From the NCBI RefSeq assembly GCF_056746865.1, contig NZ_CM163382.1: DNA of 64,000 nt; one strand, 5' to 3'. Positions within the stretch are counted from its first letter, which is position 1; every line of letters begins with the position of its first letter. Both the position numbers and the translations under genes were made by a program. Shown piece by piece: positions 3,328 through 63,806 of the stretch. Below the pieces are notes generated by a model that saw nothing but the letters and a program-made list of their open reading frames with translations, was not told the DNA's origin and did no database searches.

Positions 3328-3933
3328 TCAACTCCGGCTACAGCCAAAATTGCGCTCACCGGTGCAGTGAGCTTTGGTATGTTCCTTCGCCAGATAGTCA
3401 GCACGTTCCAGCACCTGCTGAAAGCCAGTGTCATCATCGCGTTCCAGCCACACCGCCGGCCAGGCCGGGAAATGCACCAGCGTGGCATGGCACCCGACAT
3501 CCACTCCCAGGGCACTGCACCACGCCTGTTTAATCATCCCGGCCAGTGATCCCGGAGCACGGTAATCACCGGCACGACACCAGGTATCCCGGTTAACCAG
3601 CAGCATCAGGTGATAGTGTTTTTTACCTTTGCACTCCCCAAACTCCCGGGCCCAGACGTAATGCAGGGTTGTGGGATGCACGCGTTTACCTTCCCGATGC
3701 TTACGTTTCTGGTAAGCGTCGATTCGGGCTTTCAGGGCATTGATGAAGCGGGATATCACAGCTGCGTCCGTTGCTGCCGGTACATCCGGGAAACGCAGGT
3801 CAACCCGCAATGCCGTCAGGCGGGGATGAACATTCAGTGCGTGCCGCACCGTCTCACGAATACGTTGCTGCCAGAAGGGGTTGTATTTGTAGGTCATGGT
3901 TAAATCTCCGTATGGTTCATACGGAATAGCCAC
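3328..3933 (-). CDS. YagK/YfjJ-family protein (inovirus Gp2-like, typical of CP4-6/CP4-57-type islands)
   Basis: 201-aa ORF; recalled family resemblance (KYNPFWQQRIRETV..., HYHLMLLVNRD). Start may be the internal Met at 3897. Confidence 0.55.
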   Translation of the reverse strand: MAIPYEPYGDLTMTYKYNPFWQQRIRETVRHALNVHPRLTALRVDLRFPDVPAATDAAVISRFINALKARIDAYQKRKHREGKRVHPTTLHYVWAREFGECKGKKHYHLMLLVNRDTWCRAGDYRAPGSLAGMIKQAWCSALGVDVGCHATLVHFPAWPAVWLERDDDTGFQQVLERADYLAKEHTKAHCTGERNFGCSRS

Positions 3934-4093: not shown

Positions 4094-4297
4094 GTGATGG
4101 TGATACGCAAAAAGAAGTGCAGGGACTGTGGAAACGCGATTACTCATAATACAGTGTGTTGCCCGTATTGTGGTTCTGTCGACCCCTTCGGCTATTACCG
4201 GAATACAGACCGTATCGTTACCATACTGCTGGCACTGATTATTGTGGTCCTGCTGACTACTGTCAGCGTCAGTGTGTATATACTGTGTAGCTGGTGA
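4094..4297 (+). CDS. small zinc-ribbon membrane protein (CxxC-x-CCPYCGS followed by one transmembrane helix)
   Basis: 67-aa ORF with strong GAGGAGGGAG ribosome-binding site directly upstream; C-terminal hydrophobic stretch IVTILLALIIVVLLTTVSVSVYIL. Confidence 0.45.
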   Translation: MMVIRKKKCRDCGNAITHNTVCCPYCGSVDPFGYYRNTDRIVTILLALIIVVLLTTVSVSVYILCSW

Positions 4298-5248
4298 GAT
4301 AACGGTTCATGTATCCCCTGAGCTGACAGTGTACCGGGTATATTAAGCGTAACCGACAGGTTCTCCTTCATACCATATTAAATTTTTCCAGGTATTGCCG
4401 CTGCCTTATTTCGTCCCATACAGGAAAACTCGTCTGGGTTTCTGACAAATACGCGAAACTCACAGCCCCTCAATATCAACCACACGCTGTAAGCCGGTAA
4501 TACCTGAAAATCAGCCTATTACCGCCCGCGCCTCCGTTACCGAACGCTCAGGTGACCAGACTGAAGCCCAGCACGCACTCGTAAAATTTGCGGTCAGTTC
4601 CGTCAGTCAGTGGGCAACCGCAGAGTTACGGGCTTCCAGGTCCACAGGAGTGAGTCTATAACGCGTGTGGGAAATCATTTTTTCTGGCGTTGACAGAACG
4701 CCTTACGGGCTGCTACTTACCCGGTGTCCCGCAATACAGCCTTAGTGTTCCGTTATCGGGGATCCGGACGCACCGCAACAACCGGGGAAGTATTTCTGGT
4801 TAGAGCTGTGTCAAGAGGGATTTCTCAGCCCCTCACTCACCGGCTCAGTCTCAGGGCAGAAGCATTAATACACTCAGTTCATGTCTTATACAGGAATGGG
4901 CATAGGGGGAGCTGGCGTGTCACTGCTGATTTTACGCATCAGCGTTCATGTATCTGCACTCTGATACAGAATGCTTCACAGCGCTCTGTTACCGGAGAGA
5001 TTTACTCTCTTAGGTTATTCTGGCAAATCCTTTACGTTACTCTCTGATGACTTCTTATATTTATAATACCAATCAGACAACCTTATCCCATCGGTGATAT
5101 CAGTCTCCTGCTCGCCAGGAACGGGCTGACTCACTGTAACCACCTCCGAAAACAACTCTGCAATTATCAGAACGCCTGCTTCTCTCCCTGTCCTCACGAA
5201 AACTATCCCCTCTTTATCGCGCGTGCGTGCGGAAGCATCTTTTCGCAA

Positions 5249-5259
5249 CCCCCCCCCCC
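5249..5259. repeat. homopolymeric C tract (11 C)
   Basis: Run of 11 C at 5249-5259, about 165 bp upstream of the alpA-like start. Confidence 0.9.
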
Positions 5260-5423
5260 GGGATTCCGCTACGGCTCTGCCATCGCAATCCCCCCGTTTA
5301 TCTCCGGACAGCCACATTCCCGATTATTTTTTACGTTTCTCCCCGGTTGTTATGCCGGTGAAGGTGGCGCGCTGTTTTCATGACCACACCGGCTGGTTTA
5401 ACAACATCCGGAGGAACATTCTC

Positions 5424-5630
5424 ATGGCTACCCCAGTTTCGCTGATGGATGACCAGATGGTCGACATGGCGTTTATCACTCAACTGACCGGCCTTACCGA
5501 TAAGTGGTTTGACAAACTCATCAAAGATGGGGGCTTTCCTGCGCCCATCAAAATGGGGCGCAGCTCCCGCTGGCTGAAAAGTGAAGTGGAAGCCTGGCTG
5601 CAGGCGCGTATTGCACAGTCCCGTCTGTAA
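5424..5630 (+). CDS. alpA: AlpA-family phage/island transcriptional regulator (excisionase-like)
   Basis: MATPVSLMDDQMVDMAFITQLTGLTDKWFDKLIKDGGFPAPIKMGRSSRWLKSEVEAWL matches the AlpA/MerR-like HTH family. ATG at 5424 preceded by GGAGGAA. Confidence 0.7.
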   Translation: MATPVSLMDDQMVDMAFITQLTGLTDKWFDKLIKDGGFPAPIKMGRSSRWLKSEVEAWLQARIAQSRL

Positions 5631-34156: not shown

Positions 34157-34422
34157 GGTCATTCTCCTTTACGGTGATAACCGTCGCGTAAGCAAAAAAT
34201 TGCCCCATTTTTTTGGATTCCTCAGCGACAACAACTGTCGATTTTTAGTAAATATCTATCCGGTACGAAGCCCGGCCTCTTGGTATGAATGATTGGTTTG
34301 AAGCAAAAAATAACCGACGCTGATGAAACGTCGGTTTTTAGTCATTTTTTGACAGCGGCGCATTGTGCCTAAATGGGGGGGAAATGACAAGAGAATGAGA
34401 GGCTTGTCATAATAATTTTTCT

Positions 34423-37089: not shown

Positions 37090-37140
37090 ATGACACGCGT
37101 TCAATTTAAACACCACCATCATCACCATCATCCTGACTAG
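37090..37140 (+). CDS. hisL: his operon leader peptide (MTRVQFKHHHHHHHPD)
   Basis: 16-codon ORF with seven consecutive His codons, read directly from the sequence. Confidence 0.95.
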   Translation: MTRVQFKHHHHHHHPD

Positions 37141-37205
37141 TCTTTCAGGCGATGTGTGCTGGAAGACATTCAGATCTTCCAGTGGTACATGAACGCATGA
37201 GAAAG

Positions 37206-37240
37206 CCCCCGGAAGATCACCTTCCGGGGGCTTTTTTATT
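37206..37240 (+). terminator. his attenuator terminator
   Basis: cccccggaag / cttccggggg stem followed by cttttttatt. Confidence 0.9.
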
Positions 37241-56550: not shown

Positions 56551-57670
56551 ACATAATCTCAATTATCTTTTTTGCCCAATTGTCCCAATGCAATATTTTA
56601 TTATATCTAACTCTTGCGTTTTGGGAGTAGTTTTGATAAGTCTCTACGGAGCTAATTATTTTATGAATTGCATTTCCAAAGTGCTTATAGTCTGACGAGT
56701 CTTTAATTAATATCCCCGTCCTTTCGTTGATAACTATAGAACTAATTCCACCTGTATCTGTGGCGACAACTGGCAATCCATAAGCTGCAGCTTCACAAAA
56801 TACCATTCCGTAACATTCAGCAATGGTTGGTAAAAGAAGTATATCAGCGTTAGATAACACATCGATGAATTTCTGATATTCTTCAACGTTATTTTTATTT
56901 ATTTTATCAATTAATTCAACCCAAGCAGGTAAAATCTCTTGATTCGGAGTACATCCACAAATTTTTAGTCTAACATCGATCCCATATAACTCTCTTACAT
57001 ATTCAATTGCTTTCAATGCTGTTTTACCACCTTTTCTTTCCCAATCGACCCCCAAGAAAAGACAAGTATAACTAATCTTTTGAATTATAGTTTTATTAGC
57101 AAAATGAATATCTTCAAATAAATTAGCCCCCCATGGTATTTCAACTAATTTATCAGAATCCAATCTGTAATAGTCCTTGCAAAAATCCATTGCCCATTTA
57201 GATGGGAAAGATACGACTGTTGCTTTTTCAATAGCCTTGCGTTCGATTAAACTTGCATCCTCATCATTTATAATTGTTTTTTTATTTAAATTCGGATAAT
57301 AGTTTTTTAATTGATCATATGTTGTATCCGATAGATATATTATTGGTATATTTGTTTCTAAAAAAGCAATTTGTGAAGAACCTGCAGGTGCAATAATAAA
57401 ATCCAAACCATCAATTTTTTTTAATTTTCTCTCAAATATTCTACCGTAATACTTGGAAAGCAACTTCGAACGACTATAATCATATTCCTTTCCGAAACAC
57501 CTTAATATTAATTTATATGCTTTTAACATGTATACCATATAGCTATTTACCGGTCCTAATATTTCAATGGAAATATTTCTCTTCGATAATGCCTTTAGCA
57601 TATAATAAGGTGTGCCAGACCAACTGGATGTAGATAGTGGATCATAAGCAGATAAAAAAGCCACTTTCAT
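56522..57670 (-). CDS. GT4-family glycosyltransferase
   Basis: 382-aa ORF with the C-terminal region typical of retaining GT4 enzymes. Confidence 0.7.
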   Translation of the reverse strand: MKVAFLSAYDPLSTSSWSGTPYYMLKALSKRNISIEILGPVNSYMVYMLKAYKLILRCFGKEYDYSRSKLLSKYYGRIFERKLKKIDGLDFIIAPAGSSQIAFLETNIPIIYLSDTTYDQLKNYYPNLNKKTIINDEDASLIERKAIEKATVVSFPSKWAMDFCKDYYRLDSDKLVEIPWGANLFEDIHFANKTIIQKISYTCLFLGVDWERKGGKTALKAIEYVRELYGIDVRLKICGCTPNQEILPAWVELIDKINKNNVEEYQKFIDVLSNADILLLPTIAECYGMVFCEAAAYGLPVVATDTGGISSIVINERTGILIKDSSDYKHFGNAIHKIISSVETYQNYSQNARVRYNKILHWDNWAKKIIEIMYEHKNRRTK

Positions 57671-63508: not shown

Positions 63509-63520
63509 CACGCTACCGCC
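63509..63520 (-). promoter_or_regulatory. ops element (GGCGGTAGCGTG on the minus strand) within the JUMPstart region upstream of rmlB
   Basis: Plus strand reads cacgctaccgcc at 63509-63520, the reverse complement of the RfaH-dependent ops consensus, in the galF-rmlB intergenic leader. Confidence 0.85.
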
Positions 63521-63806
63521 CCTGGCTTTACAGCTACCAGAGCACTACATGCATGTCTACGATGTGACGAGCGTTACCCACTCGCGCTAAACCCGAAAAA
63601 TTCAAACGCTAATTGTCTTACCAATCCGCTCTGGAAACAAGGAAAATCCTGGAAAACTTTGACTAAAATCCTATTGCTAAGTCGTTGTTATTCTGATTGT
63701 TTATATAAAACAACGGCAGGAAAATTCGCAACAAATTACTTTCGCCGCTAATCTTCACTGCCGTTATAATTTTCTTATCAACCGTTACATCCGGTCAGAT
63801 TTTCAT

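Follow-up and report, generated by a model that had tools for sequence, protein, structure and literature searches.

We conclude that the run of 11 cytosines upstream of alpA is probably a young, self-expanding slippage hotspot, neutral and without a dedicated function, which sits in an unconstrained spacer of a decaying control region. The window (the whole stretch of 64,000 nucleotides analysed here) is part of an Escherichia coli chromosome upstream of the his operon, with the His leader at 37116, and harbours a decayed CP4-44-like island that in this lineage has lost hha. The island comprises, in order, a YagK/YfjJ gene on the minus strand, a zinc-ribbon ORF, 1126 bp without a gene, alpA, a 200-aa ORF, IS elements, genes for a GTPase and a dynamin-like protein, and yeeS-yeeT-cbeA-cbtA; IS elements, pseudogenes and the absence of an integrase nearby attest to its heavy decay. 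By the Rfam landmarks (STnc240 sRNA, His leader and JUMPstart; Table 1), the window falls between the island and the O-antigen cluster.

Table 1. Coordinates of the features discussed in the text (window positions unless a locus is given).
Feature	Coordinates	Strand	Remarks
C11 mononucleotide run	5249..5259	none	Length varies among E. coli genomes from C4 to C27, with interrupted forms besides
Least conserved, length-variable spacer holding the run	5243..5282	none	Run and next 20 nt; invariant columns 25-40% versus 75-100% in neighbouring blocks
Distal conserved module	5064..5174	none	Invariant blocks TAATACCAATCAGACA (5064-5079), CCTTATCCCATCG (5081-5093) and CTCTGCAATTATCAGAACG (5156-5174)
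Conserved block	5056-5093		Invariant columns 80-90%
Conserved block	5154-5173		Invariant columns 100%
alpA-proximal conserved module	5326..5417	+	Nearly invariant block 5326-5356; invariant 5398-5417
Conserved block	5330-5359		Invariant columns 90-95%
Conserved block	5398-5427		Invariant columns 90-100%
AlpA-family (Phage_AlpA / HTH_17) regulator, 68 aa	5424..5630	+	GGAGG ribosome-binding site; RefSeq AlpA family transcriptional regulator
Mechanical 100-aa ORF	5317..5015	-	Run read as Gly codons; annotated in some genomes with varying ends
Relic of a Hha/YmoA-family gene (hha2/hha3 type)	~4556..4681	-	Found by tblastn; pseudogene annotations in L009 and L093
67-aa zinc-ribbon-like small ORF	4094..4297	+	Annotated as hypothetical protein WP_001297900.1
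YagK/YfjJ (inovirus Gp2 family) gene	3328..3933	-	Nearest minus-strand gene
ISEc20 inside the alpA-upstream run	L093 2989-4448 (E. coli 4/0)		Equivalent to window 5249-5259; other ISEc20 loci L106, L107 and L108
C8-C9 runs near alpA in other genera	L073 1887; L014 3498; L039 4164; L041 3922; L018 4706		
Rfam landmark, STnc240 sRNA	34303-34377		
Rfam landmark, His leader	37116-37239		
Rfam landmark, JUMPstart	63509-63547		

The window reads TTTTCGCAA-C11-GGGATT at the site, the C run filling positions 5249-5259 exactly, and 165 bp separate its end from the ATG at 5424; both the poly-C(11) tract and its distance of about 165 bp from the alpA-like start had been given correctly in the first-pass annotation. 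Its description of the surroundings as roughly 1.1 kb without convincing ORFs was equally accurate: the 1126 bp from 4298 to 5423 contain no convincing gene, their ORFs have no Pfam matches and the longest minus-strand ORF lacks a coding signature, although the stretch does hold the hha relic. Base composition predicts 0.01 C runs of at least 11 per 64 kb, in line with the view that such homopolymers are rare, and the window contains a single other C run of at least 9, namely C12 at 56007. For K-12, a G:C run of as few as 8 has been described as an outlier and an indel hot spot (PMC8510543).

The second run (56007-56018) lies in frame within the O25-family O-antigen polymerase gene wzy (minus-strand ORF 56562..55333), where the G12 of the coding strand accounts for part of the peptide TRGGGV. 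At this site, strain 510016 has C11 and its wzy is annotated as frameshifted, the ST131 O25b strain H105 has the interrupted form GC9TC, and matches in a few genomes are 1-5 nt shorter. The wzy run may be considered a candidate on/off switch of O-antigen polymerisation, or else a candidate source of sequencing errors.

The alpA ORF scores 25.2 bits against Pfam Phage_AlpA (PF05930; cut-off, 21), which places it in the AlpA family, and 80 relatives were collected across Enterobacterales. Among these 80 loci, those of other genera can be aligned upstream only in the part that adjoins alpA (~130 nt, or a 38-nt block), and in none of them does a run occupy the equivalent place; the 38-nt match, to the alpA-proximal module, was found in Enterobacter, Hafnia and Cedecea loci. 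Shorter runs, of C8-C9, occur elsewhere at 0.6-2.2 kb from alpA: C9 about 600 bp upstream in Serratia marcescens and C8 downstream in Enterobacter, Klebsiella oxytoca, Cedecea and Providencia. The CP4-57 alpA of K-12 was set aside as a comparison, there being only 44 bp between yfjH and alpA in another layout. Also rejected was an N-terminally extended AlpA in which the run would be read as Pro codons, given that the upstream frame is not kept in the E. coli paralog L009 and that alpA has a GGAGG site of its own.

The expectation that the run would be slippage-prone is amply supported by its polymorphism on identical backgrounds. Genomes with 0 mismatches across 1330 nt of flanking sequence nonetheless carry C11, C13 or C15, and pure-run alleles range from C10 to C16, with a single C27 in addition. 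When identical 35-nt flanks were required, C11 was found in 17 genomes, C12 in 39, C14 in 13 and C27 in 1, whereas the counts for C13 (about 19 genomes), C15 (about 19) and C16 (at least 2) were inferred from match lengths. The 17 complete genomes with the C11 allele share the same 81-nt stretch, come from unrelated projects and include APEC O1, while two other O1:K1:H7 APEC strains have C14. Read directly from fetched loci, the alleles are CAC4 (L007), CAACAAC6 (L008), CAACAAC7 (L005), CAC6TCC (L006 and L011), C8TCC (L098), CAC10 (L002), CAC12 (L003), C10 (L099), C11 (the window, L001 and L101), C12 (L095, L096 and L097), C13 (L100), C15 (L004) and C27 (L094). Across this set of genomes, run length evidently changes much faster than the flanks mutate.

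How the run arose can be traced through relatives of the island. An intact 70-aa Hha gene, divergent from alpA and ~725 bp away from it, is present in Edwardsiella tarda (L102), an Escherichia clade (L105) and two E. coli loci (L112 and L113). Relatives with an intact divergent hha have AGCCACCGGGTAT in place of the run, and the site reads AGCCACCG(G/T)GTAT in the two E. coli loci, in the Escherichia clades L103 and L105 and in E. tarda alike. The run is thus absent from 5 out of 5 hha-intact loci, as well as from the paralog L009, where the site is AACCACCCGGTAT; across the intact loci and L009, the position has the form CAACA(A/G)CCACC(C/G)G(G/T)GTAT or (G/A)TAGCCACCGGGTAT. In what is a small sample, the run is seen only in lineages with a degraded hha. 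Close E. coli relatives carry the interrupted forms CAC6TCC and C8TCC. The window allele is exactly as long as CAC6TCC, from which A>C and T>C set it apart, with C8TCC as the intermediate. The absence from intact relatives, taken together with the interrupted intermediates, shows that the run is young, having been made by substitutions that removed interruptions, with changes in length afterwards. As a separate observation, the two interruption sites (5' A/C and 3' T/C) occur in 4 out of 4 combinations (CA..T, C..T, CA..C and C..C) among the window, L006, L011, L098, L002 and L003, which points to either recurrent mutation towards C or recombination.

Comparison of the loci gives the following course of events. 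The ancestral CAACA(A/G)CCACC(C/G)G(G/T)GTAT gained short C runs, giving CAACAAC6 and CAC6TCC, after which A>C and T>C at the interruptions fused the short runs into C8TCC and C11. Mononucleotide runs change length by replication slippage, and we infer from this established knowledge that the pure run, once formed, would expand and change its length in the same manner. An origin of C11 by excision of ISEc20, whose copy in this run is flanked by C5 and C6, was considered and rejected: the IS-bearing lineage differs at ~39 positions of the left flank and is without the second A of CGCAA, and the C6TCC alleles share the flanks of the window.

ISEc20, an IS110-like element of 1.45 kb, lies inside the alpA-upstream run in 826 complete genomes, including strain 536, and the alpA ORF is still annotated as intact in them. 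Upstream of alpA, in focB and in the iraM-ymgK spacer, the element has C5-C8 on both sides, with junctions of the form ...C5-6/GTTACTTT...GGGGCA/C6-8... (slashes mark the junctions), and the empty focB site is CCCCTCCCCCC. A further copy lies in a prophage Rz gene; its left junction, the only one read, shows C4. Because the same element adjoins the same short sequence at four unrelated sites, this IS110-family element appears to target C runs, among which the alpA-upstream run appears to be a heavily used site; the run doubles as an ISEc20 insertion target. IS621, likewise of the IS110 family, performs sequence-specific insertion guided by a bridge RNA (PMC11208160, PMC11208158). ISEc20 is akin to IS621-type elements in being IS110-like, in having a non-coding left end (~230 nt before the recombinase gene) and in its similar target sequence at the four unrelated sites, but its target is a homopolymer-like C run and not a REP-type sequence, and an Rfam search identified no bridge RNA in it, no family being matched. 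A literature search retrieved nothing specific on a C run upstream of alpA or on the targets of ISEc20.

The run is set in the one unconstrained spacer of a divergent control region, with alpA on one side and an hha2/hha3-type gene on the other, within the CP4-44-like island. The alpA-hha region as such, ~725 bp in intact loci, is kept as non-coding DNA from E. coli to Edwardsiella (window 5040-5430; L102, L103, L105, L112 and L113). In an alignment of nine loci from five lineages, conservation peaks in a distal module and in a module next to alpA and is lowest around the run (Table 1), where the spacer between the conserved anchors GAAGCATC (5232-5239) and GTTTATCTCC (5296-5305) varies from 36 to 67 nt. 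Changes at the run alter the spacing between the distal and the alpA-proximal module, and the locus evidently tolerates them. Downstream of the run, the alpA-proximal module may fold into a hairpin over the ribosome-binding site of alpA: GTTTCTCC (5335-5342) could pair with GGAGGAAC (5410-5417, the ribosome-binding site) and GTTGTTA (5346-5352) with TAACAAC (5399-5405), all pairs being invariant, so that no covariation test is possible.

Among the alternatives, the one that fares best treats the run as a contingency locus, the length of which sets how far apart, or in what helical phase, the distal module (5064-5174) and the alpA-proximal module or promoter (5296-5417) stand, making alpA or the divergent minus-strand transcript, and thus the behaviour of the island, stochastically variable. 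We consider this unlikely. The run does vary between close strains far more than its flanks, as SSR contingency loci do, it is hypervariable among near-identical genomes and, upstream of a regulator gene, has a conserved non-coding module on either side, weak promoter-like hexamers (TTTATC at 5297-5302 and GATTAT at 5322-5327) are found 38-70 nt downstream, and there is a minus-strand promoter candidate at 5353-5323. However, a promoter scan of 4300-5424 yielded no sigma-70 site, a relaxed consensus scan of both strands yielded no sigma-70 -35/-10 pair with the run in its spacer, and the run does not lie inside a frame with a coding signature. Nor does the run occur at any locus where the hha-alpA module is intact. 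Being neither in a promoter spacer or a real frame nor maintained at homologous loci, the run was not filed as a contingency locus. In addition, the spacer holding it already varies in length and accommodates a 1.45 kb IS in hundreds of genomes with alpA intact, short or interrupted alleles are in the majority in a 60-record sample, and the island around it is heavily decayed. The earlier proposal that the run modulates a promoter through its length finds no support: a -35/-10 pair across the run is missing on either strand, intact alpA-hha relatives lack the run, and it is placed where the region is least conserved and variable in length; a distal tuning effect on alpA expression is likewise unsupported, and we infer that the run has no regulatory effect. 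A more far-reaching version, in which the run would be a true SSR contingency locus that sets the expression of AlpA or of the divergent transcript and renders the CP4-44-like island heritably variable, while also being the landing pad of a C-run-specific, bridge-RNA-guided IS, strikes us as quite improbable.

Several observations nevertheless count against neutrality. The pure run is kept uninterrupted in more than 100 genomes from many sources, even though G:C runs of at least 10 are very rare in E. coli; the earliest plausible start of alpA transcription lies ~75-85 nt downstream of the run, and a change of spacing there could affect how bound regulators are phased; and the C-rich plus strand could mean that the run matters in an RNA.

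The last of these possibilities leads to a reading at the RNA level, according to which alpA transcription begins far upstream (e.g., close to the TATAAT at 5062-5067) and the run belongs to a Rho-loading, rut-like leader, C-rich and G-poor, with run length tuning premature termination. The plus strand is indeed strongly C-rich and G-poor over 5000-5350 (GC skew, -0.35 to -0.42), the block containing the TATAAT is conserved (5056-5079), and the run is unpaired in the predicted fold. Yet the TATAAT has no acceptable -35, the same skew is expected if the stretch is the antisense of a former minus-strand sequence, and the run is absent in intact relatives, all of which makes this reading very improbable. 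Folding of the plus-strand RNA over 5070-5440 gave no improvement on shuffled sequence (z = 0.16), RNAalifold gave no covariation support (covariation term, +0.19), and Rfam at permissive thresholds returned no match for the region or for ISEc20. An anti-Shine-Dalgarno role of the interrupted allele (its CCTCCGG against the CCGGAGG of alpA) was also discarded: relatives do not conserve the complementarity, the pure run weakens it, and a conserved, closer partner exists in GTTTCTCC.

We also considered whether the run might act through the minus-strand ORF that overlaps it, but we judge from several features that this ORF is not a gene. Its homologues are essentially restricted to Escherichia and Shigella, with one match in Edwardsiella tarda, and their N- and C-termini vary; differences between lineages are spread evenly over the codon positions (9:10:14, 3:7:6 and 5:4:4); a 1-nt deletion in the E. 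coli lineage, next to GAAGCATC, puts the ATG of the small ORF of relatives out of frame; and the ORF has no Pfam match and is unannotated in the hha-intact E. coli loci. Nonsynonymous codon changes outnumber synonymous ones (14 versus 7, 12 versus 4 and 9 versus 0). The codon-position and codon-change counts, the variable termini and the lack of a family match also led us to reject this ORF as a TomB-like partner of hha. Given this judgement, we take the conserved blocks that the ORF contains to be elements of DNA or RNA, and the distal module is best regarded as conserved at the DNA or RNA level and not at the protein level.

A translational on/off switch, whereby G11 would shift the frame or tune the ribosome-binding site of this minus-strand ORF (5317/5248..5015), is accordingly a reading to which we give hardly any credence. 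The run does correspond to Gly codons in this ORF, which some genomes annotate, and the interrupted allele appears on the minus strand as GGAGGGGGGTG-TTG, resembling a ribosome-binding site 6 nt before a TTG; nevertheless, the reading is largely refuted by the evidence just given against the ORF, and by run lengths, which show no 3-nt periodicity. Finally, it is exceedingly improbable that the run is an artefact of sequencing or assembly hiding a short or interrupted C run, as the first-pass annotation had allowed: several platforms are prone to errors in homopolymer length, the window allele and the interrupted CAC6TCC are exactly equal in length and C27 is known from one assembly only, but 17 independently assembled complete genomes share the identical C11 allele, C12 and C14 recur in dozens more and the intermediate C8TCC exists, although single length calls could be wrong by 1-2 bases.

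A neutral, self-expanding slippage hotspot of recent origin, the reading we prefer, is of interest in several respects. Long G:C homopolymers are nearly absent from E. coli, and a locus that extends from C4 to C27 across the species offers a natural view of the birth and expansion of a repeat. In practical terms, the run gives rise to spurious frameshift and 'hypothetical protein' annotations and makes assemblies differ from genome to genome, and it may serve as a fine-scale strain marker. To our knowledge, SSR contingency loci are very rare in E. coli; if the length of the run did affect alpA, it would be one of these rare switches, but the evidence argues against this. The apparent targeting of C runs by ISEc20 and the in-frame G12 run of wzy may matter more than the alpA-upstream run itself.

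Poly-C and poly-G tracts in promoters underlie phase variation in Bordetella (the C-stretch of the fim promoter), Neisseria and Haemophilus. The run described here is similar to these tracts in being a G:C mononucleotide run upstream of a gene that slips between close strains. In the known systems, however, the tract lies between or next to the -35 and -10 elements or in frame, is conserved at its locus and has a demonstrated on/off phenotype, whereas no promoter spans the alpA-upstream run and intact homologous loci lack it. Homopolymeric tracts of B. pertussis have been covered in the literature (PMC1891110). The island, for its part, is of the same kind as the flu-yeeR (CP4-44-like) islands of pathogenic E. 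coli, to which the literature links the hha2/hha3 paralogues (PMC6480617, PMC4864382), and intact relatives carry a 70-aa Hha-family gene divergent from alpA; unlike in the islands with hha2/hha3, the hha of the window is a relic, and neither the alpA-hha intergenic region nor a repeat in it is described in the searched text of these papers. A further parallel is provided by mutation-accumulation experiments in E. coli, in which mononucleotide runs are hot spots for 1-bp insertions and deletions (PMC8510543). The mutational process is presumably the same, but the run studied here is longer (10 to 27) than those singled out in K-12 and represents standing natural polymorphism instead of change in laboratory lines. 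The alpA-upstream run is, in this comparison, a hypermutable mononucleotide run, unusual mainly for a G:C length that is rare in E. coli.
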